Source: Candidatus Dojkabacteria bacterium (lineage in GTDB: Bacteria; Patescibacteriota; Dojkabacteria; SC72; JAHDCA01). Taken from it: DNA of 64,000 nt. The stretch lies in assembly GCA_030583845.1 (NCBI GenBank), contig CP129478.1, forward strand, positions 779,686-843,685, given 5' to 3'. Under the pieces are notes generated by a model. That model was not told the DNA's origin, ran no database searches, and saw only the letters and a list, made by a program, of their open reading frames with translations. The position numbers and the translations under genes are program-made. Of the stretch, positions 1-14,605 are shown in pieces; the stretch's first letter is position 1, and each line of letters opens with the position of its first letter.

Positions 1-3000
1 CAGTAAGGGACTCAGATACACATGCTGTAGTGTTTACTGGTACAGCGACCTCGGTCAATAATGAGGTATATCATTTAGGCTTTGGAACCGGTGATCAAAG
101 TATCTATGTCGGTGCTGAGTGGTATATGGATTGTGATATGCCTGTGTACTCATATACACGCAAATTTGCTGTGTATGATTTCATGAACTGGACCTATGCT
201 CATATGCGTCAGTACACCTATCCAGAGCCAGCGCCTACTGTCGGTGCTGAGCAGGTATTATATGCACCTTCTGGAAGCTGGGAGTCTTCGAGTGAAGCAG
301 GCGATGTAATAGATATAGTGTGGAATGGAGGATGGGGGGATGGGACTCCGTCATCGACCGCATTTGAAGCAGATCTGACAGGCGCAACCGTAAGTGAGAA
401 TGTAACATTTCAGATCCGAACAGCAGAAGACCTAGAAGATCTTGAAGCTGCTTCATATACAACACTTGGTGTGGCAACATCCTCACCGTTTATACTTACA
501 GCTGATGACCTCGGCAACCTTGGTGTGGCTGTAGGATTCCATCGGTACATCCAGATCCGTGCGACATTAACTACTGGTGATGAGGCCGTTAGTCCGGCCT
601 TAGAGACATTCACGCTTAGCTATCTTCGAGATGACCTTGCTCCTACTACAAATGCGACAAATGTAGAATTATCTGTCGGTGATCCGGATTCATGGGTGAG
701 GGTTGATCCGACAATCGTATGGGATGCTGCTGACGACGATGCGCTTGGAAGTGGTGTAATGGGTTACTGTGCAGCTTTGGACGAGGTTGGGCTGTCTGAC
801 CCTCCCCCAAACAATGATCCTGAGACATCTTCGGGTATTTTAAACCCTGCTGACAGCGAGATCACACACCCATCGTGCCCATTTATTGTCTCAGGTGAGG
901 CATTTGATCTGTCGACACTTGGGAGCTTAGATCTTGAGTCTGGGCAACGATACTATCTATCTCTAAAGGCTATAGACTTTGCTGGCAATGTCTACAGTGG
1001 CATTGGATTCCAAAATCTATTGAGCTTCAGATTTGATAGCGCTGTGCCGAAGAATGTTGACTATATTAGCGTGCCTAATACGGTGTTTGGCTCGGTAGAT
1101 GACATGTTCTTTAGCTGGCCATCGGCTGGTGCTGCTGCCTCAGACGATCTCTATAACGGTGAAGAGCTCTCCGGTGTACATGGGTGGCAATACTCAATAA
1201 ACTCGACCACGGATTGGGGAGGGACAGATTATGACGCAGCTCTTGGGATATATTACATCCCTGATGACGGCCTGACCTACGAGCACACGCTCTCGGACGC
1301 GATAGATGGCGAAGATATCGCAATAGGGAATAATATAATATATGTAAGGACAGTCGATAGCGCCGGGAATCTTTCTTCGCACGTAACGGGTGTGCTGCAA
1401 TTTGGTGGAGAAGCACCGCAATTTGCGCCTGACGCTGAGATCACCATTACACCATCAACGAACACTGTAAACTCGTACTCGCTATCATGGCCAGAGGCAA
1501 ATCCTACAGATGGCAATACAATTGAATCGTACTACTACATGATAAACAGGACTCCCCCGAGCAATTTTGCGACACTAAGCACCAACAGCTCTATCTATAT
1601 ACCAACGGAGTCGACCACAGTGCCTACAGGACAACTGACCGGATCGGTTCGTGGCAGCAATAGTGTATGTGTCGTAGCAGTCGATAATGAGAATAACTAT
1701 TCAGCATCAAATAGCCTATGTGGCGAGTATACCTTAGATTCAACGGTGCCTGATCCTGTTCAGAATCTCTTCGTGACAGATAGCTCTGTCAGGACAAACG
1801 AGCTTTGGAGGTCAACGATAGTGTGGGAAGCTCCAGGATATCAAGGGACAGGTCAGCTTACTTACATCGTACAAAGAAGTCCTGATGATAGCTCTTGGAC
1901 CACCGTCGCAACCACCCCAGGTTTGGCTCATACGGATATAGTCCCTGAGTCTCAGCTATACTATTATCGTGTTGGGGTCTACGACACAAGTGATGAGTCA
2001 ATAGCGTCGCCGACATTCTCGACTTCCGTATCAATAATTCCAAGAGGGAGCTATACAGAGCCCGCCGACCTAGTGAGTGGCCCGAAAGTTGTTGAACTAA
2101 GCACCACTAACGCGCTCATTACATGGACAACCGGGCGTGGATCTGACAGCAAGGTGCAGTACGGGCTTGCTTCAGGTGAGTACTTTGATGAGGAGCCTTC
2201 AAAAGGTGAGCAGGTTAATGATCATGAAATAAGATTAATCAATCTTCGCCCAGGCACACAATACTTCTATAGAGCTAAATGGTCAGACGAGGACGGAAAC
2301 CTTGGAATATCAGATGAACAATCATTCGTGACCCAGCCAGCACCTGTTGTGACAGATCCTGCGATTACAAGAGTTAGCCTTAATTTCGCTACACTAAGAT
2401 TTACAGTACAGAATGCTTCCGCAGTGAAGATATATTATGGCAAATCGGCTTCGTTTGGAGGGGCTGAGGAGATCTCGACAGCCACTAGTAGGTCTACTTA
2501 TTCCGTAAACATTGAGGGTCTGGATGATGGATCTAAATACTTTTATAAAATAAATACATTTGATCCTGAAGGGAATGAGTATGAAGGTGTAGTTCTCAGC
2601 TTTGAGACGCTTCCGCGGCCGCAAGTATCAAATATCCGCATACAGCAGGTTAAAAATAGTGCCCAACCATCGATTGTTGTCACCTGGGACAGCAACACCG
2701 AGATTACCAGTGTAGTTTCTTACTATCCGACCAGTGATCCAGTGAATAGGCTTGAGGAAGTTGATATAGAGTTAATTAAAGGTGAGCATCAGCTTTTGAT
2801 ATCTAACCTTCAAGCTGAGACACAGTACGGACTTATCGTCTCAGGTGTCGACAGATTGGGAAATGAGGCACTCTCTTCTGAGCAGGTATTTACAACAGCA
2901 ACAGATACTCGACCTCCATTGATCAGTGATGTGAGTGTAGAGAGTTCTATAGTGGTAACAGAGGATGGGACAAGCACAGCCCAGCTTGTTGTATCGTGGA

Positions 3001-3278
3001 ATACAGATGAAGACGCAACCTCGCAGGTAGAGTACGGTATCGGAAATAGTACGGAGTATACCCAGAGAACCAGAGTTAATACTGATTTGAGTCTAAATCA
3101 CCTCGTAGTTATTTCTGAGCTTGATCCTTCAGCCGTTTATCATCTCAGAGTGCTTTCACAAGACTCGCAGGGTAACCAAGCGCAGTCAGGTGATATTATT
3201 ACGATAACACCGAAGCGTACTGATTCAGCGTTCGAACTAGTAGTAAACGGATTAAGAGATATATTTGGTTTCCTATAA
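1..3278 (+). CDS. 5'-partial giant secreted protein with tandem FN3 / purple-acid-phosphatase-N-like beta-sandwich repeats
   Basis: The frame is open to the window edge, and the listed start at nt 30 is only the first alternative start after an out-of-frame TAG. At least five degenerate repeats carry an FN3-like signature, e.g. ITWTTGRGSDSKVQYGLASGEY...LRPGTQYFYRAKWSDEDGN and VKIYYGKSASFGG...GSKYFYKINTFDPEGNE. There is no C-terminal TM segment. An ABC ATPase gene follows 2 nt downstream. Confidence 0.6.
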   Translation, partial: VRDSDTHAVVFTGTATSVNNEVYHLGFGTGDQSIYVGAEWYMDCDMPVYSYTRKFAVYDFMNWTYAHMRQYTYPEPAPTVGAEQVLYAPSGSWESSSEAGDVIDIVWNGGWGDGTPSSTAFEADLTGATVSENVTFQIRTAEDLEDLEAASYTTLGVATSSPFILTADDLGNLGVAVGFHRYIQIRATLTTGDEAVSPALETFTLSYLRDDLAPTTNATNVELSVGDPDSWVRVDPTIVWDAADDDALGSGVMGYCAALDEVGLSDPPPNNDPETSSGILNPADSEITHPSCPFIVSGEAFDLSTLGSLDLESGQRYYLSLKAIDFAGNVYSGIGFQNLLSFRFDSAVPKNVDYISVPNTVFGSVDDMFFSWPSAGAAASDDLYNGEELSGVHGWQYSINSTTDWGGTDYDAALGIYYIPDDGLTYEHTLSDAIDGEDIAIGNNIIYVRTVDSAGNLSSHVTGVLQFGGEAPQFAPDAEITITPSTNTVNSYSLSWPEANPTDGNTIESYYYMINRTPPSNFATLSTNSSIYIPTESTTVPTGQLTGSVRGSNSVCVVAVDNENNYSASNSLCGEYTLDSTVPDPVQNLFVTDSSVRTNELWRSTIVWEAPGYQGTGQLTYIVQRSPDDSSWTTVATTPGLAHTDIVPESQLYYYRVGVYDTSDESIASPTFSTSVSIIPRGSYTEPADLVSGPKVVELSTTNALITWTTGRGSDSKVQYGLASGEYFDEEPSKGEQVNDHEIRLINLRPGTQYFYRAKWSDEDGNLGISDEQSFVTQPAPVVTDPAITRVSLNFATLRFTVQNASAVKIYYGKSASFGGAEEISTATSRSTYSVNIEGLDDGSKYFYKINTFDPEGNEYEGVVLSFETLPRPQVSNIRIQQVKNSAQPSIVVTWDSNTEITSVVSYYPTSDPVNRLEEVDIELIKGEHQLLISNLQAETQYGLIVSGVDRLGNEALSSEQVFTTATDTRPPLISDVSVESSIVVTEDGTSTAQLVVSWNTDEDATSQVEYGIGNSTEYTQRTRVNTDLSLNHLVVISELDPSAVYHLRVLSQDSQGNQAQSGDIITITPKRTDSAFELVVNGLRDIFGFL

Positions 3279-3280
3279 TT

Positions 3281-4120
3281 ATGAACCAGGATATGGTTAC
3301 AGACATACAGATAGCTTCAGCTAAGTCATCGAAAGGTGACAGGAGTGAACAGTTCGCGTTGCAGAAGGATGCGATAACTGTATCAGATGTCAGGAAGGTC
3401 TTTAAAGTTGGCGAGCAAGATGTAGAAGTACTAAAAGGTGTGAGTTTGGCGATAAACCGTGGAGAGTTCACTATACTATTTGGACCCTCGGGGTGTGGAA
3501 AATCTACACTGCTTCATTTAATTCTTGGTTTGGAGGATCCAACAGCGGGAGAAGTAGACTTCATGGGGGTAAAGTTGAGCGGTAGCAATGATCCTAATTT
3601 TACTTCGACTTTTCGTAAGCTCAATATCGGCATGGTGTATCAGCAATCGCTCTGGGTAAAATCTTTATCTGTTCGAGAAAATGTCGCTCTTCCTCTAATG
3701 CTTGCCGGCACAAATAAAAATCAGGCTTTGAATCGATCTATCGAGATGCTTAGAATGGTTGGTATGCTCGATTGGGCGGACTATTTCCCTACAGAGCTGT
3801 CTGCTGGACAGCAGCAACGCACAGCAATGGCTAGGGCATTGGTTAATGACCCGGAAGTAATAGTGGCAGACGAGCCCACAGGTAATCTTGATTTTGAAAG
3901 CGGTAAAGATATGATGAGTCTATTCTATAAATTGAACCATGAATTAGGTAAGACAGTGATCTTAGTAACGCATGACTTGGAGTATCTGATTTATGCTGAT
4001 AAAGCATTCCAGATGTTAGATGGCCAAGTAATCGCAACACATGATAAGGGTGCTATTGAAGAGCTGCTGCACCATAATATTGGTCTAAAAAAGAACGGTA
4101 ATAATCATGAAGAAGCTTAA
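3281..4120 (+). CDS. ABC transporter ATP-binding protein (MacB/LolD/FtsE-like)
   Basis: Walker [16 protein letters not shown] signature LSAGQQQR and Walker [13 protein letters not shown] are present. It is tightly coupled to the flanking genes. Confidence 0.85.
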
Positions 4121-6122
4121 GATTGGCGCAAGCACCAAGAGATGGTTCAATCCGCATAATATTGCGGGCAAATTAAGAGCCGCTACCTTTGAGTTGAACT
4201 ATATTGTCCGATTCCTGTTTATTGTAAATGTATATGTTGTCACACGTACGATTCAGAAGATTCTGGCAATCAGGATTTTTCCATCTCTAGTTGCGTCGCA
4301 TTACAATATTTTCGCACTTAAAACATTTGCCTTCCTCAATCGTGTTGGTGATATGAAGCGGTATCCTAACAATATGACAATACTTACGATACTTGATCTC
4401 GCATTGAAAAACTTGAAATTCAAAAGGAGCAGAGCTTTTATTACAGTTAGTGGAGTATCATTAGGTATTGCGACTATCGTGTTTTTGGTGTCCCTCGGCT
4501 TTGGTCTCCAGGAGCTAGTAATTAGCAGAGCGATTTCACTCAAAGAGATGAGGCAAGCAGAGGTCGATACACAGCCCGGGAGCAAATTGAAGTTAAACGA
4601 TTCAGCTGTTACAGATATTAAAAAAATCTCGGAAGTGGATGAGGTTTTCCCAGTCATCGCAGTGGTGGGTAAGGTTGAGTACTCCGAATCTACATCGGAT
4701 ATTGCTATCTATGCTGTGCCAGGTGGTTACCTCGAGGAGTCGGCAATAAATATTGTCGAGGGTACACTGTTTGACGGCAAGATGGCTGTGGCAGGAGAAG
4801 GCGAGCAGGATGTTCTTGGTATCGGTACATACTCCGGGCACCCAGGTTTAGATAACTATCTTGGGAATGTGATAATGGGTGAGAGTGAGCCCGTATGGCT
4901 AGCTGTCAGGGTAACGCCGGATAAAGATTCTAGACTACTTGGATGGACTAATGCCAGGCTTTTAAAGGATAAAGCAGCCTCACATGTAAGCGGAGGTAAG
5001 TATCTGTACGCAGACGAGGAGAAGAATGACTGGTTCTATGGCCATATGCCTCTATGGGCCAAAGGAAGATGCTCGGAGGAGTGTGCAGATACTATTTATG
5101 AGCCGGTAAGAGATGACCGTGGTTATCAAACGAACGAGTGGGGTTACATCGAGAATCAGTATCTGGAGTACCAAAGTACTATTGTACCTAAGCCATCTGA
5201 AGAAGGGCTGAGTAGTGCTGTTCTTGGAGCTTCACTCGAGCTTTCTGACACCGTGGATCTGGAGTTTATTGAGATAGATGATGAGGAAGAGACCACAGAA
5301 AACGTCGTCGAAAAGGTTAATCTGGCAGCAAATGCTGAGAGAGTCGTCATCGTGAATCGTTCTGTGCTAAACCTATTGGGTGTTTCGGAACAGGAGGCGG
5401 TAGGTAGGAAACTTAAACTTGGCTATTCTGTCACCAATGAGTTGATATCAGAAGCAGGTTCACGAATCGAGTCGGTGCCAGAAGAGTATACAATTGTTGG
5501 AGTCACCTCTGATGAAAGCAGCCCATTTGCTTTCGTACCAATAACCGATCTTAAAGGTATCGGTGTTGCCAACTACTCACAGCTCAGAGTTGTGGCTGAA
5601 AGCAATGAGGCTCTAAGTGATATACGAAAGAAGATCGAGTCATTAGGGTTTGCGACTTCTTCTGTCGCAGATACCAAGGAACAGATAGATCAATTCTTTG
5701 CCACAGCTAGGATCATTCTCGCACTTGTGGGTAGCTTTGCCCTTGCTGTTGCATGCCTAGGAATGTTTAACACATTGACGGTATCACTCTTGGAAAGAAC
5801 CAGAGAGGTTGGGTTGCTTAGAGCCATGGGTATGCGTCCCGAGGAGGTAAGGATGCTTTTCCTCTCCGAGTCGATGATCATGGGCTTTTATGGTGGTGTT
5901 GGTGGACTGCTTTTAGGCTTCTTCATCGGTAAGCTATTAAGCATCGCTCTCTCTTTCCTATCTATAAGTAAAGGGTATGGGTTTATCGATGTGACGAATA
6001 TACCGATCTTGCTAGCTCTTGGTGTGGTAATGATCTCGTTCTTTGTTGGATTTGCAACTGGATTATATCCTGCTAACCGCGCCACCAAGATCTCGGCGTT
6101 GAACGCCTTGAGATACGAGTAG
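4107..6122 (+). CDS. ABC transporter permease, FtsX/MacB family with a large extracytoplasmic domain
   Basis: The C-terminal block LRAMGMRPEEVRMLFLSESMIMGF...ATKISALNALRYE is typical of FtsX/MacB permeases. An N-terminal TM follows KFKRSRAFITVSGVSLGIATIVF, and the insert between TM1 and TM2 is about 400 aa. The ATG at 4107 overlaps the ATPase stop (ATGA coupling), but the first ~80 aa are unlike the family, so the true start may be the ATG at 4353. Confidence 0.7.
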   Translation: MKKLKIGASTKRWFNPHNIAGKLRAATFELNYIVRFLFIVNVYVVTRTIQKILAIRIFPSLVASHYNIFALKTFAFLNRVGDMKRYPNNMTILTILDLALKNLKFKRSRAFITVSGVSLGIATIVFLVSLGFGLQELVISRAISLKEMRQAEVDTQPGSKLKLNDSAVTDIKKISEVDEVFPVIAVVGKVEYSESTSDIAIYAVPGGYLEESAINIVEGTLFDGKMAVAGEGEQDVLGIGTYSGHPGLDNYLGNVIMGESEPVWLAVRVTPDKDSRLLGWTNARLLKDKAASHVSGGKYLYADEEKNDWFYGHMPLWAKGRCSEECADTIYEPVRDDRGYQTNEWGYIENQYLEYQSTIVPKPSEEGLSSAVLGASLELSDTVDLEFIEIDDEEETTENVVEKVNLAANAERVVIVNRSVLNLLGVSEQEAVGRKLKLGYSVTNELISEAGSRIESVPEEYTIVGVTSDESSPFAFVPITDLKGIGVANYSQLRVVAESNEALSDIRKKIESLGFATSSVADTKEQIDQFFATARIILALVGSFALAVACLGMFNTLTVSLLERTREVGLLRAMGMRPEEVRMLFLSESMIMGFYGGVGGLLLGFFIGKLLSIALSFLSISKGYGFIDVTNIPILLALGVVMISFFVGFATGLYPANRATKISALNALRYE

Positions 6123-6148
6123 GGGATTGCCTCTTAGTTTTATCAAGC

Positions 6149-7453
6149 TTATTCGTAGCGAAGTGCCTCGATCGGGTCGAGTCTTGAAGCCTTCCTCGCC
6201 GGAATTAATGCCGCAATTAGGCTTATGCTTGTAAGGAAAAGGACGATAGGTATGAGCATCAATGGAGGGAAGAGGAACTGAATCGGCTCATCTACGCCTT
6301 GGCTCTCAAAATAGTTGAACAACAACGGGTTGAAAATAAGCCCACCAACAATCAACGCAGAAACAATGCCCACAACACCTCCCCAGAAGCCGATAAATGC
6401 TCCCTCGATTGAGAATAAAGCAAACACTGTGCGATTCGACATCCCGATGGCCTTCATTAAGCCTATCTCTTTAGTTCTTTCGTATACGCTCATTAGCATC
6501 GTATTTAAGATTCCAAAAAGCGATGCAAAGATTACGATACTTGAAAATCCAACAAGCCCTGAAGTAATGTAGACCCCTGCACTTTGCGCCAGCTGATTTA
6601 ATTGGGCAAAATTGAAGTATTGATAACCTTCCTTGTTTAGCTCGTCGGTGACCTTCTTCTCGGTCTCAGCTGTTGTGTCTTCAAGTACTAATACAGCTGT
6701 TTGAGCAGATGCCAATAGCGGATTCTCAGCACCTAGCTGCTCAGTCTGGATCTCTAGAGCCTTCACCTCTGTAATATAGAATGCTTCTGTATCAGTAATG
6801 CCTGTCGATTTGACTCCAACAATTTCCAATTCGTCAGAAACGATCACGCCACTGCTATCAAGATAGCTGATTGTAATGCTCTTCCCAACCAGCCTCTCTA
6901 CTTCTTCGGGATCGTGCTTGTCCAACTCCGCTGTCTCAAGATACTCCTCGGTGACAACAGTTTCGTCATCATCTTCTGGCAAGCGCCCTGCAAGCAGTTG
7001 CAGCTTCAGATCTGGATAGAAAAGTGTAGTGTTTGTTTGATATTTCCCCTCGACATCTTCGATCTCGACATATTGAACTTCGGTCGAGTAGTTGTAATAG
7101 ACCGAATCGACACCGTCGAGCGATTCAAAGTAGCTTCTATCATCCTGATTTAAGATAGGTATCCCACCAGCACTAACATTCGCCTGCTCTTCTGGCTCCT
7201 CATACTCTTCTAATCCAGTAGCTCCAGGCTCTCTTTCATTGGCGAAGTCACCGCCTGGGAAGACAGAGAGACTCCCTTCAGCTTCGACATTATTTAGCTC
7301 GCGGTTAAAAAGTGTGATTACACCGATTCCTGCGCCAAGCGCTAGTGTAAGCGTAGTACCTCCAACTGCCACTGCTAATATGGTCAGTAAGCTTCTGGTC
7401 TTTGACTGGACGATATGTCTATTACTTTTGATAAATATATCTTTAATCTTCAT
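6149..7453 (-). CDS. ABC transporter permease, FtsX/MacB family
   Basis: N-terminal MKIKDIFIKSNRHIVQSKTRSLLTILAVAVGGTTL and C-terminal MKAIGMSNRTVFALFSIEGAFIGF...ARKASRLDPIEALRYE match the family. It overlaps the upstream ATPase gene by 11 nt and converges on the plus-strand permease. Confidence 0.8.
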   Translation of the reverse strand: MKIKDIFIKSNRHIVQSKTRSLLTILAVAVGGTTLTLALGAGIGVITLFNRELNNVEAEGSLSVFPGGDFANEREPGATGLEEYEEPEEQANVSAGGIPILNQDDRSYFESLDGVDSVYYNYSTEVQYVEIEDVEGKYQTNTTLFYPDLKLQLLAGRLPEDDDETVVTEEYLETAELDKHDPEEVERLVGKSITISYLDSSGVIVSDELEIVGVKSTGITDTEAFYITEVKALEIQTEQLGAENPLLASAQTAVLVLEDTTAETEKKVTDELNKEGYQYFNFAQLNQLAQSAGVYITSGLVGFSSIVIFASLFGILNTMLMSVYERTKEIGLMKAIGMSNRTVFALFSIEGAFIGFWGGVVGIVSALIVGGLIFNPLLFNYFESQGVDEPIQFLFPPLMLIPIVLFLTSISLIAALIPARKASRLDPIEALRYE

Positions 7454-8114
7454 CTACGATTTTGCCGTCAACTAATTCTATCTGTCTTCCACACTTCTCT
7501 GCCAAATCTTCATCGTGCGTGACAATAACCAATGTTGTATTAAGCTCCGCATTCAACCCAAAAAGAATCTCTTCAATCTTGCGACCAGTTGCACTGTCGA
7601 GGTTGCCAGTCGGCTCATCAGCGAAAACTACCTGTGGCTGATTTATCAATGCCCTTGCGATGCATACTCGCTGCTTTTGGCCACCTGAAAGCTCATTCCC
7701 TTTATTTTTTGCCTTATCTTCCATCTCTACCAGTTTTAGCATCTCCATAACCTTTTCGTTGACCTCGCTCTTTGGCCTGTTCAATAGTAGTAGTGGAAAT
7801 GCAACATTGTCGTACACGCTTTCGCTATTAAACATGAAGAACGATTGGAATATGAAGCCGATATTTTCATTGCGGAATCTATTGAGCTGGCGTGACTTGA
7901 AATCGCGGAGATCTTTGCCGTTAAAGTTGATATTTCCTTCAGTTGGGGTATCAAGCGCGGCCAGTAAATGCATAAGCGTGGACTTGCCAGACCCTGACTT
8001 GCCAAGTATCGCCAAGCTCTCTCCTTGATCAATCTGTAGTGATACACCATCAAGCGCAGTAAAGCTGGTTTTACCCATCTTGTAAATTTTGGTGATGTTG
8101 TCTGCGCGAATCAT
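7443..8114 (-). CDS. ABC transporter ATP-binding protein (MacB/LolD-like)
   Basis: Walker A GKSGSGKSTLMH, signature LSGGQKQR and Walker [13 protein letters not shown] are present. Confidence 0.85.
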   Translation of the reverse strand: MIRADNITKIYKMGKTSFTALDGVSLQIDQGESLAILGKSGSGKSTLMHLLAALDTPTEGNINFNGKDLRDFKSRQLNRFRNENIGFIFQSFFMFNSESVYDNVAFPLLLLNRPKSEVNEKVMEMLKLVEMEDKAKNKGNELSGGQKQRVCIARALINQPQVVFADEPTGNLDSATGRKIEEILFGLNAELNTTLVIVTHDEDLAEKCGRQIELVDGKIVDED

Positions 8115-8175
8115 TCAACAGATATATTAGCACGAAAGCATATCTGAGGTACAGCTGACGTCAAGGCGAGGGGAT

Positions 8176-8787
8176 CTATAACTCCTCCGATTTCTTGTCT
8201 CTTCTTCGCCTCATAAAGATAAAAATCGCTGGTAGAAGGAGCAGAAGTAAACCACAAGAACTGACACTTCCTGCTACGAAGGTCGCTGTATCTATACCGA
8301 ATATAAGGCCATCGTCATTTTCCTCTCCACCGCCACCTCTGTTGTCACCGTCATCACTACCGCCATCGTCGTCATCGTCACTGTCAGGGTCATTCGGGTC
8401 ATTGTCCCTGCCGTCTGTGTCTTCCCCGCCATCACTGTCTCCATCGCCATCATCTGGATTGCTGCTTGAACCGCCGTTACCAGAGCCATTGCTGCTACCA
8501 CCCGACCCGCCATTCTCCTCTTCTTCTTCCTCACCACCGCTATCGCCTGGATCATCAGGTGGGTCATCGGGTGGCTCAGGATCTGGGAATTCTGAATTAT
8601 CGCCCCACGACTCACATCCTGGATCTGTGCCGAAGTCTATTGCACCATCGCCATCGTTGTCCATTCCGTCATTGCACTCCTCGAACCCGTAGATATATTG
8701 ATAAAATGTGGAAGCATAAGAGTGCTGAGCAGACAGAGCTAGGAGGAGCAAACAAAGGTAAATTGTGATCTTTCTTGCGAGATTCAT
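8176..8787 (-). CDS. Secreted Asp/Gly-rich acidic protein with a thrombospondin-type-3-like Ca-binding repeat and a C-terminal Cys-TM-RRRR anchor or sorting-signal-like tail
   Basis: A signal peptide MNLARKITIYLCLLLLALSAQHSYA is followed by CNDGMDNDGDGAIDFGTDPGC, a C-x-D-x-D-N-D-G-D-G-x-x-D...C motif. There is a ~120-aa D/G/S/E low-complexity region. The C-terminus is SVSSCGLLLLLLPAIFIFMRRRRDKKSEEL. The antisense ORF 8195..8692 is a low-complexity shadow. Confidence 0.5.
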   Translation of the reverse strand: MNLARKITIYLCLLLLALSAQHSYASTFYQYIYGFEECNDGMDNDGDGAIDFGTDPGCESWGDNSEFPDPEPPDDPPDDPGDSGGEEEEEENGGSGGSSNGSGNGGSSSNPDDGDGDSDGGEDTDGRDNDPNDPDSDDDDDGGSDDGDNRGGGGEENDDGLIFGIDTATFVAGSVSSCGLLLLLLPAIFIFMRRRRDKKSEEL

Positions 8788-8794
8788 CTTTCAA

Positions 8795-11700
8795 TTAGTT
8801 TGAAACAACCGATAGGCTCATATTAATTGAATAATTGCCACTTGCTTGTTCAGCAGGGATTTTCTGAGATACTTCAATCCCTGTAATATCCCAGTAACAG
8901 CCTGTGTCAGCAGTTCCATCTGCCTGAACAAGTAAAATGCTGTCGGTCGTTCCTTGAACATAGCCTGCGTCTGAGCCAACAGTAATCCCCGTCGCACTAC
9001 AGCCGCCCTCTGGAGTTATAGTTACATTGGAAAGATCGATGCTTAGCTGACCCTTATATGAGTCGGCATCACCGCCGTCGCCACATCCAGCAGGTGATCC
9101 AGCACTGTCATTGAAGTCGTAGCTTGATGACCAGCTGGAGGTAATCCCGTCGGCAGCTGCTAATGATAAAGTCCAGGAGGGGTTCGATCCACTATTGTAG
9201 ACACGAATCTTTTCGTTCGCGACTCCGAATGTGCCCGTGGTTGTTTGGCATGCAAAGCTTGCAGTTGCAATAGAGAAGGCAATAGAAGGGTTCGAGACAG
9301 TAGTGCCACCGCTATCGACGATGTCGACCGATATTATATCCTGTTCGACTTCTGCCCAGCGATAACTTGCCATTGCGAAATCGATATCATCGGTAACAGA
9401 TGTCGAAATTGAGGAGTTTAGTGTCCTGAGCCTAAAGTTTATTAGCTCTGCACCTGAATCAATATAGTAGTAAGGGCTAGTGATGAATGCCTTGATACCC
9501 GCTGTTTGAGTAAATTTGCTATCTCCATATCCAAATGAAGTACCAGAGTTACTAAGCTGTGAGGCGCTCCACCCTGAGACTCCAAGCCTGGCTGAATAGT
9601 CTTTTATACCGAGTTGTCGAGTAATCGATACACTGTTTGAGCGTATCCGAGCAGCCCAATGAATTGCAGTGATTGAGCTGCCCGAACCTATCTCAGTAGG
9701 AAAAGATAGATTAGTAGATATTGCAGATTCACCGTTGTTACCATCATCATCATTATCAAGAGAGTAAAATGATGAGATATACTCTGTGGTTGAGCTAACC
9801 TGCCATGTGCTACCAGCAGAACTACCTCCGTCAGCGGAGCCTGCATCCCTTGTATTTGTACAGTCGGTTGCAGTACCGCTTCCCCAAGCGATCTCGCAGA
9901 GGCTACTATCTGTATTGGTTGAGCCTAGCATTACATATAGAGCATCAAGGCTCATCGTGTGCGTATTGCTACTGGCTGTGGCTATCCTTACTCTAATTTC
10001 ACCACTGCTAATATAGTTAGAAAGAGTTACATTATTCTTTGCATACGAATACACAGTGTCTGTTGCACATGCTGTGCCTGTAACTGCCCCGCTAGTTAAT
10101 GCTTCCCAGCTGGTGCTATTAAAATTATAGATATAGATATCAAATGTGAGAGCTGAATTCGAGAGACACACTTCAGGTTTTACAAGGATGGTATTTGCTG
10201 ATGTGTAGGCCTCTACGTTTTTAAACGAGAAATATACATCTAGCGGGTTGGTAGCATCATTGGTCATTGTGAACTTGTTACCATCGCTTGCAGCAGCTCC
10301 AATCATGTCAGAGATATAGTTTGATGTAGATCCTGTGTATGGTGATATCTTTGTAAATGCTGCCGGTTCGTAGATTGGGTCGATACCGACCTCAACGGCT
10401 GCGTAGTCAAGCCTATGTTGCACTGTTGAGGCTACAGTAGAGTAGACCCTAACCAGTACTGTATCGCTTGATCCACCAATAAAATTTGTAAGTGGGGTGG
10501 AGTATGCTGTTCCAGGTGATGAGCTTCTGTCTGAGAAGAAACCGTCATAAACAGCATACTCCCTGAGAGTATCAGTAGTGTTTGTATGATCTGCTTTCCG
10601 ATCGTTTAAGGTCCTCCAACCTCCACCTGTGCACTGGGCATCCGCAGCGTTGTCCACGCCAGTCGATGAGACCCAGTCACAGATCTGATGAGAATAGGCA
10701 TTACCTGTTGTTATATTGGTATCCTCTATGGTAATGAACAGTTTATTTGCGCCATACAGGTTTATGTTATCAAATGTAAGTTGCTTATCCAGACCTGAAG
10801 CATTGTCTCTTGCAGTCGTCCAGTAGTTTGACGTCCCATCAGACTGAACATCAGAGCCAAGTGTGCCTTTCCACGATCCGGTATTAGTTTGTGAGGTGGA
10901 GACCTCAGCCCCAGTAATTAACGCGCCACCAGTCGCGGTTCGCTTTGTTAGCAAGGTTATTCTGTCGGTTTCCTCAACCCATCTGATACTCATCATTGCA
11001 AAAGCCCAGTCTCTGCTACCTGGGTCCGATGTATTGCCTGCACTTGTCCTAAGTCGAAGATTCATAATATTGCTTGAGGTGTCTACATACATTGGTGCGT
11101 CGGTCTGGATCTCTGTAGTTACCCAGCTGTCCGACCATGTATAAGTGGAGCTGTTGCTGTTATCTGATCCTGGAGTATCCGTCCATCCGGTGGTCACATT
11201 TTGTCCAGCATACGTTCTTAATTGAGGCGATGCGGTTTGGTTAGAATTATTTGAACGATGCTTTGTCGCAAAATGCATAGCGGTTATAGACATGTTCGAG
11301 CTAGTAGTTACTGGAAACGAAAGATTCTGTGAGGCAGCGTACTCGTTGTCGTTTGCATCATCATCGTTATCCTGGGCATAAAAGGATGAAGGATACTCCA
11401 GCGTTGCAGCCGCCTGCCAAGTCGAGCCTGATGGTGCCCCTGTCTTACCAACATCTACATACCTTGTGTTTACGCAGTTTGTCGCAGTTCCGGTCCCCCA
11501 TGATATCTCGCACTTAGAGCTGTCACTATTGATAGCTCCTACCATCATGTAAGACCTATCAATCTGTATATTGTAAACCGATGCAGGAGCGTTAGTGACA
11601 ACTCTAAATCGTACCTCTCCAGACGAAATATGCTCATTCAGATCAAAACCGCCAATGAGCGAATCGTTGAAGGAGAATGCGTAATCTGTATCACTGGGGC

Positions 11701-12742
11701 AGGCTGTTGATGCTGGTGGGGATGGGATTGAGGTCCAGTTTGTGTCAGCAAAATTGTATAAGCTTATCGATGATAATGTTAGGCTGGCATTTGACATACA
11801 CAGCTCTGTGGCCACCAATAGCGTGTTTGCGCCATTGAATGTCTCTACATTTTTAAATGTTAAATAGTACTCGATTGCAGTCGACGTCGCTGACATTGGA
11901 ATAGTCAATTTAGTGCCGTCCGAAGCATCTGCTGCTGCCGGGCTACCGACGATGTCTGATATATAGTTCGTAGCAGACCCTGCCGCGGTAAGTGTGATGT
12001 CTGACGGTTCATATATCGGATCAACGGCAACCTCTATGCGAACCATGTCTGTACGGAATGAGGTTGTATCGTTTGTTGTAGAGTATGATCGCAATAATAC
12101 TTTGTTATTGCTTGATGCATTAATAAAATTGCTCATCGGGGTAGAAGCGACTGTTCCTGGTGATGAGCTTCTTGATGAGAAGTAGCCATCGTAGATCTCA
12201 TACGTTCTTGCGGTGTCGGTGTTGTTTGTCCAAGTAGTCCTCCGGGGGTGCAGTGTCCTCCATCCACCAGTTGTACAGTTTGCATCTGCAGCATTGTCAA
12301 CAGCAGTCGAAGAAGTCCAATCACAGATCTGATGAACGTAATCGATCGAATTAGTAATATTTGAGTCCTCAAAGTAGATGATGATTTTGTTGCCACCAAG
12401 CATTGAGACATTGTTGAAAGCAAATTGCACGTCAAGACTTGGGCTCGCAGCGGCTCTTGCGACAGTCCAGTAGTTGTCATCTGACCCGAATGTGCCTTTC
12501 CACGAGCCGGTGTTGCTGTTGTCTGTTGATGCCTCGGAGCCGACAACCAAAGTTCCACCACTTACCATGTAGTTTGAATCGGCTCTTACACTATCAACTG
12601 ATCCTGCATTTTCAGAGTTCTGTGTAGCATCTCTATTAGTGATATAGTAAAGATTGGCAAGCAGCACCACTACTAACAGCAGCGCCATCAGGGCTCCTCT
12701 TAATCCTATGCTCAGGTTTTTCCTTCTAATTTCTCCTGTCAT
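8795..12742 (-). CDS. Giant (1315 aa) membrane-anchored or secreted surface protein with an internal ~480-aa tandem duplication and a C-terminal domain paralogous to ORF 13928..14605
   Basis: The N-terminal TM/signal is LRGALMALLLVVVLLANLYYI. Two homologous halves begin SWKGTFGSDDNYWTVARAAA... and SWKGTLGSDVQSDGTSNYWTTARDNA..., each containing HQICDW.SST.VDNAADA.CT.GGWRTL. The protein is rich in N-x-S/T sites and ends ...GNYSINMSLSVVSN. Confidence 0.6.
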   Translation of the reverse strand: MTGEIRRKNLSIGLRGALMALLLVVVLLANLYYITNRDATQNSENAGSVDSVRADSNYMVSGGTLVVGSEASTDNSNTGSWKGTFGSDDNYWTVARAAASPSLDVQFAFNNVSMLGGNKIIIYFEDSNITNSIDYVHQICDWTSSTAVDNAADANCTTGGWRTLHPRRTTWTNNTDTARTYEIYDGYFSSRSSSPGTVASTPMSNFINASSNNKVLLRSYSTTNDTTSFRTDMVRIEVAVDPIYEPSDITLTAAGSATNYISDIVGSPAAADASDGTKLTIPMSATSTAIEYYLTFKNVETFNGANTLLVATELCMSNASLTLSSISLYNFADTNWTSIPSPPASTACPSDTDYAFSFNDSLIGGFDLNEHISSGEVRFRVVTNAPASVYNIQIDRSYMMVGAINSDSSKCEISWGTGTATNCVNTRYVDVGKTGAPSGSTWQAAATLEYPSSFYAQDNDDDANDNEYAASQNLSFPVTTSSNMSITAMHFATKHRSNNSNQTASPQLRTYAGQNVTTGWTDTPGSDNSNSSTYTWSDSWVTTEIQTDAPMYVDTSSNIMNLRLRTSAGNTSDPGSRDWAFAMMSIRWVEETDRITLLTKRTATGGALITGAEVSTSQTNTGSWKGTLGSDVQSDGTSNYWTTARDNASGLDKQLTFDNINLYGANKLFITIEDTNITTGNAYSHQICDWVSSTGVDNAADAQCTGGGWRTLNDRKADHTNTTDTLREYAVYDGFFSDRSSSPGTAYSTPLTNFIGGSSDTVLVRVYSTVASTVQHRLDYAAVEVGIDPIYEPAAFTKISPYTGSTSNYISDMIGAAASDGNKFTMTNDATNPLDVYFSFKNVEAYTSANTILVKPEVCLSNSALTFDIYIYNFNSTSWEALTSGAVTGTACATDTVYSYAKNNVTLSNYISSGEIRVRIATASSNTHTMSLDALYVMLGSTNTDSSLCEIAWGSGTATDCTNTRDAGSADGGSSAGSTWQVSSTTEYISSFYSLDNDDDGNNGESAISTNLSFPTEIGSGSSITAIHWAARIRSNSVSITRQLGIKDYSARLGVSGWSASQLSNSGTSFGYGDSKFTQTAGIKAFITSPYYYIDSGAELINFRLRTLNSSISTSVTDDIDFAMASYRWAEVEQDIISVDIVDSGGTTVSNPSIAFSIATASFACQTTTGTFGVANEKIRVYNSGSNPSWTLSLAAADGITSSWSSSYDFNDSAGSPAGCGDGGDADSYKGQLSIDLSNVTITPEGGCSATGITVGSDAGYVQGTTDSILLVQADGTADTGCYWDITGIEVSQKIPAEQASGNYSINMSLSVVSN

Positions 12743-12745
12743 AAC

Positions 12746-13900
12746 CTACTCCCTTGGAGGGATTTTAATTTTCCTTCCAGCTTCGATATTATACGGAGGC
12801 TTAATCTTGTTTGCATTCGCCAGCTTTTTCCAGCCGATGTTGTTTCTTTTCGCTATTTCTTCTAGATTTTCGCCGCTCTTTATTGTGTAGGTATCCCATC
12901 TCATCTTAATCTCGTTTCGGTGGGCAATCCGAAGCCAGATAGCAGCCCCAACTGCGATGACCAAGGCCAATACACCCAGCTCTATCAAGGCATTCCTTGG
13001 TTGGGGTAGGAATAGGAGATACTTCGGCTCAGAGGATATAGATGTATTTGGCGCCTCTGAGTCCACTCCAACACTTGCTTCGCTGCTGTTGTCGTACTCA
13101 ACTATTGCGCTTGTTTTGATCAGGCCTCCCCACTCCGGTGGCTGTAGGTCAATATTAAATACACCGGTGTCACCACGAAGTATCGGATATTGACTGATTT
13201 CTTCATGGCTTCCAATACCCCAGAAATAGGCGGTTACAAGATGAAGCTTGGCGTCGATCGATACATTCCCATCGTTTCTGATCTCGGTTCGTGTGGTTAT
13301 CAGCGACCTGCTGGCCTGATTGGCTCGAAAAGAGGTTAGGCTTAATTTCCTGACCTGCTCACCCGGCACAGTTACTACCACTCTCAAGCCGGTTCTAAAT
13401 GATAAGCTCACCCCGGATCCACTTCCAGTGGGGTCTTTTTTCTCTTGTAACATTATGCACCCATTTTGTTCACCTACATCCGCTACCTCTGGCACCTCAA
13501 CGTTGAACCTTACACTTGTACTTGTGTGAGCAGCCAAGTCTAGCTCTTCGGCCTCAAGATTAATCCACCCTCCCACTTTATCTTTGCTGTCGAGATACTG
13601 CTCGCAAGCGAAAGAGCCGTCGGTGGATTTCTGAGAGTCAGTGGCATATAGAAGCACCGTCTTGTCTTGATCTGTGTTATTGATGACTAGGATCTCATCC
13701 TCTTCGCTTACACCAGGTGCGAGATTGTAAATAAAAATCGATTTGGTTCTCTCGTTATCTGGGTCTGGGTGAGCAGGCTTCAGTCCGATACCTTCATATT
13801 CAATGGCAGCGGCTGAAGAAGTGCTATATAAAGTGAAAAGAATCACACAAATTGACAGTTTTGCTAGCCTTGCTGGCGTAGCGAGTTTCTGTTTGAGCAT
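12746..13900 (-). CDS. Secreted/anchored protein with a C-terminal TM segment followed by a LysM domain
   Basis: It has a signal peptide, a ~290-aa ectodomain, a TM segment LIELGVLALVIAVGAAIWL, then YTIKSGENLEEIAKRNNIGWKKLANANKIKPPYNIEAGRKIKIP, which fits the LysM consensus. It starts 4 nt downstream of the giant gene. A resemblance to DUF916-type WxL-interacting surface proteins is only a guess. Confidence 0.55.
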   Translation of the reverse strand: MLKQKLATPARLAKLSICVILFTLYSTSSAAAIEYEGIGLKPAHPDPDNERTKSIFIYNLAPGVSEEDEILVINNTDQDKTVLLYATDSQKSTDGSFACEQYLDSKDKVGGWINLEAEELDLAAHTSTSVRFNVEVPEVADVGEQNGCIMLQEKKDPTGSGSGVSLSFRTGLRVVVTVPGEQVRKLSLTSFRANQASRSLITTRTEIRNDGNVSIDAKLHLVTAYFWGIGSHEEISQYPILRGDTGVFNIDLQPPEWGGLIKTSAIVEYDNSSEASVGVDSEAPNTSISSEPKYLLFLPQPRNALIELGVLALVIAVGAAIWLRIAHRNEIKMRWDTYTIKSGENLEEIAKRNNIGWKKLANANKIKPPYNIEAGRKIKIPPRE

Positions 13901-13927
13901 AGGTTTATATCCCGCAGAATCTAAGTT

Positions 13928-14605
13928 TTAGTTGCTAACTACAGACAGAACCATGTTGATATCGTAGTCTGAAGCGGCTGCTTGCTGTGCAGGAATATCT
14001 TGGTCTACATCGACACCTATTAATGCCCAATCACCGATATCGTCGGAGCCTGCAGCTGCAGTTAGGAGTGTGATACTGTCGGTAGTACCCTGAACAAACG
14101 AAGCGGCTGAGCCTTTAGTGATGTTGGTGGTAGTACAGCCTGAGCATGCACCTGCTGTTAATGTGCCAACCGACGCATCAACTGTCATCTGTCCACCAAC
14201 CGAGTCTGCATCACCACCATCTGTACAGCCACCACCCGATGAGTCGTTAAAATCGTAGTCAGAAGCTGCTCCATCCCATACTGCTGTTGCAGCTGATCCG
14301 GCGAGACTTGCTGACCATCCGTTATCCGCAGCGTCTGGGTTTGAGACATAGATTCTCTGAGATGCCGTACCGAAAGTTCCTGAGCTTGTCTGACAAGCAA
14401 ATGAGAATGTTGCAGTAGGAAATGCAACGCTTGGGGAACCAACTGTAACATATGATCCGTCAACAATATCAATCGCAAGCGTTCCTGCGTTAATTGTTTG
14501 GGTGAAGTTTGAGGTGTCTAGTGCGTATACTGATGCACCGAAGAAAGAAAGTGTAGATATAATAGTAGCTAATAGTAAAATTCCCTTGGCAGCTCGAGCT
14601 TTCAT
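13928..14605 (-). CDS. Small secreted protein, stand-alone paralog of the C-terminal domain of the 1315-aa protein
   Basis: After a signal peptide it aligns to the last ~190 aa of 8795..12742: DIVDGSYVTVGSPSVAFPTATFSFACQTSSGTFG vs DIVDSGGTTVSNPSIAFSIATASFACQTTTGTFG, and YDFNDSSGGGCTDGGDADS vs YDFNDSAGSPAGCGDGGDADS. Both end in SVVSN. Confidence 0.55.
   Translation of the reverse strand: MKARAAKGILLLATIISTLSFFGASVYALDTSNFTQTINAGTLAIDIVDGSYVTVGSPSVAFPTATFSFACQTSSGTFGTASQRIYVSNPDAADNGWSASLAGSAATAVWDGAASDYDFNDSSGGGCTDGGDADSVGGQMTVDASVGTLTAGACSGCTTTNITKGSAASFVQGTTDSITLLTAAAGSDDIGDWALIGVDVDQDIPAQQAAASDYDINMVLSVVSN

Follow-up and report, generated by a model that had tools for sequence, protein, structure and literature searches.

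Bacteria of the candidate phyla radiation (CPR, or Patescibacteria) are thought to live attached to other cells, and little attachment machinery beyond type IV pili has been defined for them. A locus in a Candidatus Dojkabacteria genome, at one end of a 64,000-nucleotide stretch of DNA (contig CP129478.1, positions 779,686 to 843,685; the whole stretch is referred to here as the window), raises the question of what is built by giant surface proteins encoded beside two sets of transporter genes. The initial annotation of its first 14,605 nucleotides proposed two MacB-type secretion systems dedicated to these giants, with a loose resemblance to the WxL/DUF916 loci of Firmicutes. In our reading, the locus holds a divergent variant, present in many CPR lineages, of a known kind of system, and is neither a new category nor a MacB-driven secretion super-locus. 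Four of its genes, designated I, H, G, and F, probably represent a divergent CPR version of the Gram-positive WxL cell-surface complex (Csc) cluster.

Gene content and conservation of the cluster

The initial suggestion of a reduced-genome episymbiont is supported by the source of the DNA, a Candidatus Dojkabacteria metagenome-assembled genome (MAG) with a 1.04-Mb contig, in which QY318_03615 is 100% identical to protein I. Mapping of open reading frames (ORFs) confirmed nine ORFs, A to I, at the positions annotated earlier and in two convergent sets that include MacB/FtsX-type ABC modules, with A, B, and C on the plus strand and D to I on the minus strand. Minus-strand spacings are 27 nt (I-H), 3 nt (H-G), 7 nt (G-F), 61 nt (F-E), and -11 nt (E-D). 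TypA/BipA comes next, at 14779, and the remainder of the window is housekeeping. The surface-protein genes and their domains, including transmembrane (TM) segments, are as follows.

13928..14605, minus strand: I, small secreted WxL-like protein, 225 aa (homologs, AlphaFold2 (AF2) model, hhalign; no Pfam match)
12746..13900, minus strand: H, WxLIP-like membrane scaffold, 384 aa (Pfam WxLIP_PGBD and LysM; family profile match)
13445..13780, minus strand: DUF916/PGBD domain of H, aa 41-152 (Pfam PF06030, 34.6 bits; cut-off 27.3)
12926..12994, minus strand: TM helix of H, near aa 303-325 (hydrophobic stretch ALIELGVLALVIAVGAAIWL, then RIAHRNEIKMR)
12758..12889, minus strand: LysM of H, aa 338-381 (Pfam LysM, 49 bits)
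8795..12742, minus strand: G, large surface protein, 1315 aa (repeats, I-like C-terminus; no Pfam family)
About 10973..12562 and 9350..10933, minus strand: the two repeat copies of G, ~530 aa each (47% identical, E = 2e-153)
About 8798..9349, minus strand: C-terminal I-like (WxL-like) domain of G, ~190 aa (47% identical to mature I; 259 bits with the I-family hidden Markov model (HMM))
8176..8787, minus strand: F, small acidic anchored protein, 203 aa (translation; N-terminal module of relatives; weak NCBIfam acid_disulf_rpt)

We analyzed the context of these genes in 80 loci containing an I-family gene, found in a scan with one genome per species; at least 3 kb of sequence was present upstream in 56 loci and downstream in 48. 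The loci are labeled Dojkabacteria, Peribacteria, Kerfeldbacteria, Saccharibacteria, Gracilibacteria, Peregrinibacteria, Doudnabacteria, Microgenomates, Levybacteria, Falkowbacteria, Magasanikbacteria, Colwellbacteria, and Paceibacterota. H lies directly downstream of the I-family gene in 75 of the 80, and the other five are contig ends or show the Gracilibacteria order, with H upstream. ORF clustering detected the I-type domain in all 80 loci, H in 71, F-type proteins in 29, signal-peptide and TM proteins in 24, a TM-anchored Beta-lactamase2/Peptidase_S11-like protein in 12, and ABC ATPases in seven. A large ORF (326-2172 aa) ending in an I-type domain is present in 53 loci. The conserved minus-strand unit is I-H-G(-F). 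The gene order of the six-gene operon described initially stands; the conserved unit is these genes and not all six. Since the 61-nt gap between F and E contains a promoter-like match, itself not above chance, a single six-gene transcript is only putative.

Several variants of the cluster were seen. In 12 loci, a TM-anchored gene resembling Beta-lactamase2 or DD-peptidases lies between the H-type and large genes (e.g., L003:11886-12872 and L033:12684-13652); it is absent from the window. Five loci labeled Peribacteria or Gracilibacteria (L004, L008, L014, L029, and L044) begin with a divergent small paralog (35-37% identical to I), continue with H and the large gene, and end with one or two I genes of the canonical type; their large ORF appears broken under genetic code 11, as expected if UGA is a sense codon there. 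Nine loci with a typical CPR I-H-large cluster (L017, L027, L032, L041, L046, L047, L057, L059, and L073) are labeled 'uncultured Gammaproteobacteria', 'Pseudomonadales', 'Ectothiorhodospiraceae', or 'Christensenellaceae', and are probably mislabeled CPR bins.

H is a DUF916 relative with a WxLIP-like layout

H comprises a signal peptide, the DUF916/PGBD domain, a second beta-rich region (aa ~175-295), the TM helix, and the LysM domain. Within an H-family alignment from 55 CPR loci, WxLIP_PGBD was matched by 48 members and LysM by 52. When compared by hhalign with four bona fide Firmicute WxLIPs from annotated plasmids, the family aligned with 98.4% probability (E = 6e-15) over 193 columns, and H also matched the solved Enterococcus faecium EfmWxLIP1 (PDB 9i25_C, 9i1y_A; E = 0.004). 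Because H passes the Pfam cut-off, matches EfmWxLIP1, and belongs to a family with this strong profile match, its sequence firmly places it as a true DUF916 relative with a WxLIP-like overall layout: the N-terminal DUF916/PGBD domain and C-terminal TM helix of a WxLIP were both found, and a DUF3324/HBD domain was not. The hhalign match reaches only ~40 columns into the second domain, and 12 of the 55 family members match fn3_5 weakly. With the composition of the cluster also kept across the CPR, the parallel to WxL/DUF916 loci is stronger than first claimed.

The initial description of H as a LysM-anchored protein has to be revised, as H has a TM helix. The LysM is predicted to be cytoplasmic because it is located after this single C-proximal helix and a positively charged stretch; in one relative it is a triple repeat (L055:10613-12316).

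I and the C-terminus of G share a domain that is probably WxL-like

I has a signal peptide, the N-terminal peptide TSNFTQTINAGTL, an all-beta domain, four conserved cysteines, and an acidic loop (DFND..GCTDG.D.D). It was correctly recognized at the outset as a small secreted paralog, being 47% identical to the last ~190 aa of G. We identified 954 homologs of I at 62-83% identity across CPR lineages; with the more distant loci compared below, the range is 54-83%. An I-family profile searched against 1.84 billion representatives retrieved 758 clusters (50% identity) at E <= 1e-3, 687 of them at E <= 1e-10, with few weak matches. Searches of I, G, and F against Pfam, NCBIfam, and PHROGs returned no informative family.

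Profile comparison of the I family (67 sequences) with 22 bona fide WxL domains by hhalign placed the match exactly on WxL motif 1 (P = 2.5e-4, probability 43%; IYVxNPDAADNGWtlSLA versus VxVsDlRGsnaGWsLtV). After trimming of signal peptides P was 9.5e-4, compared with 0.3 for the reversed profile and 0.028 for the best of 60 column shuffles. Relaxed alignment was colinear along the domain, from the G-x-L strand to the tail (IPAeQ..Y..m.L.v versus VP....Y.TTLTW.L). Motif 1 reads W-x-V/A/L in I and W-T-L in G, preceded by V (W-10) and followed by L (W+4); WxL domains, which carry two Trp-x-Leu motifs on adjacent strands, have been described with hydrophobic residues at W1-10, W1+4, and W2-2 (PMC10599100; PMC9772566).

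The position of the domain in its proteins points in the same direction. WxL domains form the sole domain of small proteins or the C-terminus of large ones (PMC9772566), and the I-type domain stands alone or at the extreme C-terminus in all 150 listed representatives. Matches end at, or one to two residues from, the C-terminus in nearly all of the best 150 representatives (161-2069 aa). Across the 80 loci, it occurs alone in 114 small ORFs and C-terminally in 54 large ORFs. One WxLIP-like gene, H, is flanked by two genes with one shared domain (I and the G C-terminus), an arrangement that would be that of a WxL cluster if the shared domain is of the WxL type. We consider it probable that I is a very divergent WxL-like domain, although not one to be filed as a member of PF13731; homology to WxL domains is only suggested by the sequence comparisons. 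The solved WxL chain 9i25_A is not among the listed structural matches of the I model, and the structure libraries may not contain it. PMC12537917 was considered as the paper on 9i25 and does not describe that structure.

Large proteins of the cluster carry variable passengers

G begins with a signal/anchor sequence, and the duplication noted initially in this 1315-aa protein is real: its two repeats account for most of the region before the I-like domain. No carbohydrate-binding domain was recognizable by Pfam in this passenger. Large proteins of related loci carry different passengers ahead of the I-type domain, including eight DUF7483 domains in another Dojkabacteria genome, a combination of SdiA-regulated, DUF2341, and Laminin_G_3 domains, fn3, or nothing recognizable; G-type passengers recur in only three loci. 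This variability reads as an adhesin pattern. A sub-region of the first G repeat (aa ~167-275; 11918..12244, minus strand) matches PDB 11ok_A, a 'phage tail tube protein' (phmmer E = 8.6e-6; TDMVRIEVAVDPI versus TDMIRSEKAVDFI), which could reflect remote homology or chance.

Comparison with Firmicute WxL and saccharibacterial WxL-like clusters

Firmicute WxL clusters combine a WxLIP with two proteins that contain WxL domains, a small one consisting of the domain alone and a large one in which it lies C-terminally, behind variable host-binding domains; a small LPXTG protein is often encoded as well (Hassan & Williamson; PMC9772566; PMC10599100). The CPR cluster matches this composition with I as the small protein, G as the large protein with a variable passenger, H with its signal peptide-DUF916-beta-TM arrangement, and F as the small anchored protein. 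WxL motif 1 and the tail motif align to I in the same order. There are also clear differences: the I-type domain is a separate sequence family that lacks the second Trp and has an acidic loop and four conserved Cys, DUF3324 is not recognizable in the second domain of H, a LysM is added past the TM helix, and the fourth protein has a TM anchor or dockerin instead of LPXTG. Conservation of the small subunit is far higher in the CPR than in Firmicutes.

A cluster annotated in similar terms is listed for the saccharibacterium Southlakia epibionticum ML1 (SEML1_0628-0621) in Tables S1/S2 of Wang et al. (2023; PMC10633639). According to these tables, its small protein has a WxL domain-containing protein as best Foldseek match (TM-score 0.85), is assigned a Csu pilus domain (6fjy), and adjoins a DUF916 protein, which gives indirect support to the WxL reading of I. 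Its organism likewise belongs to the CPR, and the cluster combines a large FN3 protein, a small WxL-like protein, a DUF916 protein, and a small LPXTG-like protein; genes for an ABC ATPase and a permease (SEML1_0622/0621) come next, in the same orientation. It differs in that the large gene comes first, the DUF916 protein has 316 aa and no LysM, and the small protein has 188 aa; the likeness is one of annotation only, within those tables. In PMC10633639, 'WxL' and 'DUF916' are absent from the main text and confined to the supplementary tables. These table annotations were the sole trace of either term in the CPR; we found no paper discussing them there.

A model for the I-H-G(-F) cluster

On this basis, we propose that I, H, G, and F would leave the cell via Sec, as their N-terminal signal/anchor sequences suggest. 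H would be held in the membrane by its TM helix with the DUF916 (WxLIP PGBD) domain exposed. By analogy with Firmicutes, for which AF2 predicts that the WxL sandwich is completed by a WxLIP hairpin or strand (PMC10599100), the DUF916 domain of H may contribute a strand or hairpin to the incomplete beta-sandwich of the WxL-like domain, which makes up almost the whole of I as well as the G C-terminus. G would in this way be held non-covalently at the surface, its duplicated 530-aa passenger facing outward as an adhesin or ligand-binding module. F would be a further anchored accessory; it has its own TM anchor in the window, and many of its relatives have a dockerin. For an episymbiotic CPR cell, such a complex would likely serve attachment to a host or substrate.

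A number of results weigh against assigning the cluster to the WxL system. Neither I nor the G C-terminus matches Pfam WxL (PF13731), even at E <= 10, and the I-family HMM scores <= 3.8 bits against bona fide Firmicute WxL proteins, with nothing found. The I family is sharply bounded, shows no gradation from Firmicute WxL proteins, and has no member that is reached via Pfam WxL. The hhalign probability against WxL domains is only 22-43%, and the Trp-x-Leu of motif 2 is absent, Leu or Val taking the place of Trp (YDINMVLSV versus YTTTLTWNL). For H, WxLIP_HBD/DUF3324 (PF11797) was matched by none of the 55 family members at E <= 0.01, and its LysM has no counterpart in Firmicute WxLIPs, which end in a short basic tail, and is unexplained by a WxL-type model. 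In Southlakia, the WxL/DUF916 genes were non-essential by transposon sequencing (Tn-seq) and in co-culture, and disruption of SEML1_0625 conferred a growth advantage (PMC10633639).

If the assignment is correct, a cluster of many CPR lineages whose products have so far been labeled 'hypothetical' gains a name and a testable model, and becomes a concrete candidate for the machinery of surface display and host attachment in the CPR. WxL/WxLIP display, regarded as essentially Firmicute (91% of WxL sequences are from this phylum; PMC9772566), would then extend to bacteria that are only very distantly related. The cluster also has its oddities, namely a secreted subunit that exceeds a translation GTPase in conservation and a LysM domain predicted to be inside the cell.

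The ABC modules are mostly neighbors rather than core components

The assignment also corrects the idea that the flanking MacB-type pumps are a secretion system for the cluster. The remaining genes of the locus and the short spacer between them are as follows.

3..3278, plus strand: A, secreted FN3-repeat protein, 5'-partial, 1091 aa in frame (Pur_ac_phosph_N, 71 bits; fn3)
3281..4120, plus strand: B, ABC ATPase and partner of C, 279 aa (ABC_tran, 111 bits)
4107..6122, plus strand: C, FtsX/MacB-type permease, 671 aa (FtsX, 63.6; MacB_PCD, 50.5 bits in two stretches)
6121..6134, plus strand: short hairpin at the 26-nt spacer between the convergent C and D stops (terminator-like, consensus match only)
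6149..7453, minus strand: D, FtsX/MacB-type permease, 434 aa, with a ~250-aa extracytoplasmic domain (FtsX, 73.9; MacB_PCD, 28.3; cut-off 27)
7443..8114, minus strand: E, ABC ATPase of the MacB/LolD/FtsE type, 223 aa (ABC_tran, 130 bits)

Much of the initial description of these genes holds. A, described as 5'-partial and longer than 1090 aa, spans 1091 aa in frame and is followed after 2 nt by the start of B, and the ~400-aa extracytoplasmic insert ascribed to C corresponds to ~410 aa between TM1 (near aa 108-130) and the FtsX block (541-663), within which MacB_PCD is split by a ~200-aa insertion. Both modules have the make-up of MacB-type systems, with an FtsX block and MacB_PCD in C and D and matching ATPases in B and E. 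As in the mechanotransmission transporters MacB, LolCDE, and FtsEX (type VII ABC), C and D share the FtsX four-helix block and a MacB_PCD between TM1 and TM2; they differ from these in that the window modules have no membrane-fusion or outer-membrane partner, and C carries the ~200-aa outer-domain insertion and a ~100-aa N-terminal extension. Identity with housekeeping FtsEX or LolCDE, which had been named as grounds for abandoning the secretion proposal, was considered and rejected because scores fall under the NCBIfam equivalog cut-offs: E scores 258 for LolD (cut-off 307.75) and 207 for FtsE (cut-off 264.85), B scores 205 and 189 against the same cut-offs, and C and D remain far below those for lolCE (65-69; cut-off 362) and FtsX_Gpos (34-48; cut-off 225), as well as below the MacB cut-off.

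According to the strongest of the rival explanations, the two modules are dedicated machines for secretion, assembly, or release, B-C serving A and E-D serving G together with I, H, and F. The evidence divides between the two modules. For A-B-C, homologs of C (38-52% identity) were found in seven metagenome loci; a B homolog precedes C in all five loci that extend upstream, and an A homolog (40-51% identity) lies directly before B in the three informative loci (L084, L085, and L086). A-B-C order is hence kept at 38-54% identity in all three; the tight spacing in the window, 2 nt and then a 14-nt overlap, and the unusually large outer domain of C (~410 aa) also speak for the dedicated-machine reading. 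The full-length A homolog in L085 has 1066 aa and an N-terminal signal/anchor. Since this order is kept, linkage of the FN3 protein to the ABC module holds, and A-B-C is a separate conserved unit that combines a MacB-type ABC module with an FN3 surface protein. Of its possible roles, action of the large outer domain of the C pump on or with A is the most likely.

Such linkage does not extend to E-D. An E-D pair lies beside the cluster in a second Dojkabacteria genome (L003), there upstream of I and thus on the other side, and in L006. Among the 80 loci, an ABC ATPase is present within 3 kb of the I-H-G cluster in three; two of these are E-like and on the same strand (L003 and L006), and the third is unrelated and on the opposite strand. 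Any ABC ATPase within 10 kb was found in seven of the 80. If a ~1-Mb CPR genome has, by a rough estimate, 0.2-0.4 ABC ATPase genes per 20-kb stretch, ABC ATPases occur near I-H-G loci no more often than by chance. Two further Dojkabacteria loci are without such a pair: no ABC ATPase is present within 10 kb in L065, and the only one in L051 is unrelated to E (24-26% identity) and on the opposite strand. E-D is a lineage-specific neighbor and not a core part of the conserved I-H-G system. The same-strand ATPase and permease that end the Southlakia cluster leave room for a lineage-limited functional link of E-D.

Linkage of giant proteins and pumps in other genomes, on which the initial proposal was to be judged, is thereby borne out for A-B-C and fails for I-H-G with E-D, which are within 3 kb in just two of 80 loci. 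Dedicated secretion of the giants fares likewise: the A-B-C linkage speaks for it, the sparse pairing of E-D and the 61-nt F-E gap with its promoter-like site speak against it, and the signal/anchor sequences of I, H, G, and F are ordinary Sec signals. With these, Sec export suffices, and MacB export of I, H, G, and F is without support. In addition, no MacB-type pump is known to carry folded proteins of 1000 aa across a membrane. Taken as an account of both modules, dedicated secretion is unlikely. A Firmicute WxL/WxLIP pair on Lactobacillus plantarum plasmid p1186-2 (L092:9900-11637) has an ABC permease and ATPase ~3 kb downstream, with toxin-antitoxin genes between; this proximity is probably coincidental.

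Unusual conservation of I

I is conserved to an extent that is unusual for a secreted protein. Compared with homologs in L023, L045, and L078, I is 70%, 64%, and 54% identical, TypA 46%, 43%, and 43%, and H 36%, 42%, and 35%; I is thus under stronger constraint than TypA/BipA in the same genomes. Horizontal transfer was rejected as the cause, because H and the passenger encoded alongside it show only 35-42% identity or no relationship. An AF2 model from 27 near-identical sequences had a predicted local distance difference test (pLDDT) score of 62, and adding 46 divergent homologs raised this to 89. Residues 23-43 are highly conserved, yet unstructured in this monomer model. They include TSNFTQTINAGTL (aa ~30-43; 14500..14540, minus strand), which is nearly invariant, lies directly past the signal peptide, and is outside the folded monomer.

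A near-identical peptide opens F-family proteins past their signal peptides, e.g., GSNFQQTINP (L016:9311-9856), and is located in the window F at aa ~22-32 (8700..8730, minus strand); GTSQFTLEI and SSFQIEI are further forms in F-type proteins. This common peptide could be a strand-complementation, processing, or sorting motif. The G N-terminus (SNYMVSGGTLVV) was tried as a further carrier and rejected, as a motif scan matched 3 of 32 large proteins at unrelated-looking sites. The best structural neighbors of the I model are CsuA/B, Pyrodictium CanA/CanX, CfaB, FimA, and DUF1102 tubes. Donor-strand fiber subunits (archaic Csu pili, CFA/I, type 1 pili, Pyrodictium cannulae, and TasA-like DUF1102 tubes) are hence the nearest solved folds, and they likewise have a conserved N-terminal segment outside the folded monomer; they differ in that the I cluster has no chaperone or usher, and polymerization of I is hypothetical.

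These features could also be explained if I were the subunit of a polymer, a fiber or surface lattice formed by strand exchange in which TSNFTQTINAGTL of each subunit occupies the groove of its neighbor. G would be attached as a tip or adhesin via the C-terminal I-like domain, F would be incorporated by way of the same N-terminal peptide, and H would serve as membrane anchor or chaperone. Constraint over nearly the whole surface of I is typical of self-assembling subunits, and the unstructured conserved segment, the structural neighbors, and the peptide shared with the F family are all compatible with strand exchange, as is the strand insertion of WxLIP into WxL predicted for Firmicutes (PMC10599100). 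Against this, the C-terminal domain of G has no N-terminal peptide motif, and TSNFTQTINAGTL could instead be a processing or recognition site. Polymerization is not known from the small WxL proteins of Firmicutes. A polymeric I is, on balance, quite unlikely.

The constraint on I, the shared invariant peptide, and the kept LysM of H also feed a more speculative proposal: the I family might be a CPR-wide subunit derived from the WxL fold that self-assembles by N-terminal strand exchange, with the variable large proteins (via the C-terminal I-like domain) and F-type proteins (via the SNFxQTI peptide) plugged in, H as its anchor, and the cytoplasmic LysM coupling it to wall synthesis. We regard this as a long shot on a par with the polymer itself. 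If true, a self-assembling I scaffold would be a new kind of modular surface display for host attachment across the CPR. The WxL-type complex held by H is the reading we retain.

F and its dockerin-ended relatives

F has a signal peptide, a Cys-rich acidic segment (C.DG.DNDGDG.IDF..DPGC), an acidic low-complexity linker, and a C-terminal hydrophobic helix followed by RRRRDKK; no LPXTG is present at this end or elsewhere in F. The initial label of TSP3-like was not upheld, since F has no TSP3 match and matches an acidic double-disulfide repeat alone, weakly (22 bits; cut-off 41). Its N-terminal Cys-rich acidic module matches by tblastn, and aligns with, the product of the gene that follows the large one in 17 related loci. 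In 24-29 of the 80 related loci, a dockerin type I pair above the Pfam cut-off forms the end of the F-like protein. The dockerin-ended gene is followed by one or two genes whose products have a signal peptide, a TM anchor, and a cohesin-like domain at the N-terminus (L054:15218-18828, L063:10563-14269, L073:17509-19518, and about 25 other loci); the cohesin matches are just under the Pfam cut-off (23.8 and 22.4 bits versus 24.1). The two resemble a cohesin-dockerin anchoring pair in the CPR. This likeness to cellulosome-type systems is limited to related loci, as F has its own TM anchor in the window, and no enzymes are attached.

That the cluster is a surface complex for the capture, binding, or degradation of carbohydrate substrates rather than for host attachment, as first proposed for the csc clusters of Lactobacillus (Siezen 2006; PMC1534035), would accord with these dockerin- and cohesin-like proteins and with the Laminin_G_3/ConA-like and DUF2341 passengers of related loci, but is very unlikely given that the 80 loci share no conserved glycoside hydrolase, sugar transporter, or regulator and that the G passenger has no recognizable carbohydrate-binding domain.

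Other features of the window

Elsewhere in the window, a 645-aa ORF (28304..30241, minus strand) matches AcrB/RND transporters (ACR_tran, 319 bits, model positions 311-705 of 1021) and is adjoined by a 261-aa ORF. This pair (28304..30986, minus strand) may be a split or truncated RND-type (resistance-nodulation-division) transporter in a CPR genome without an outer membrane.

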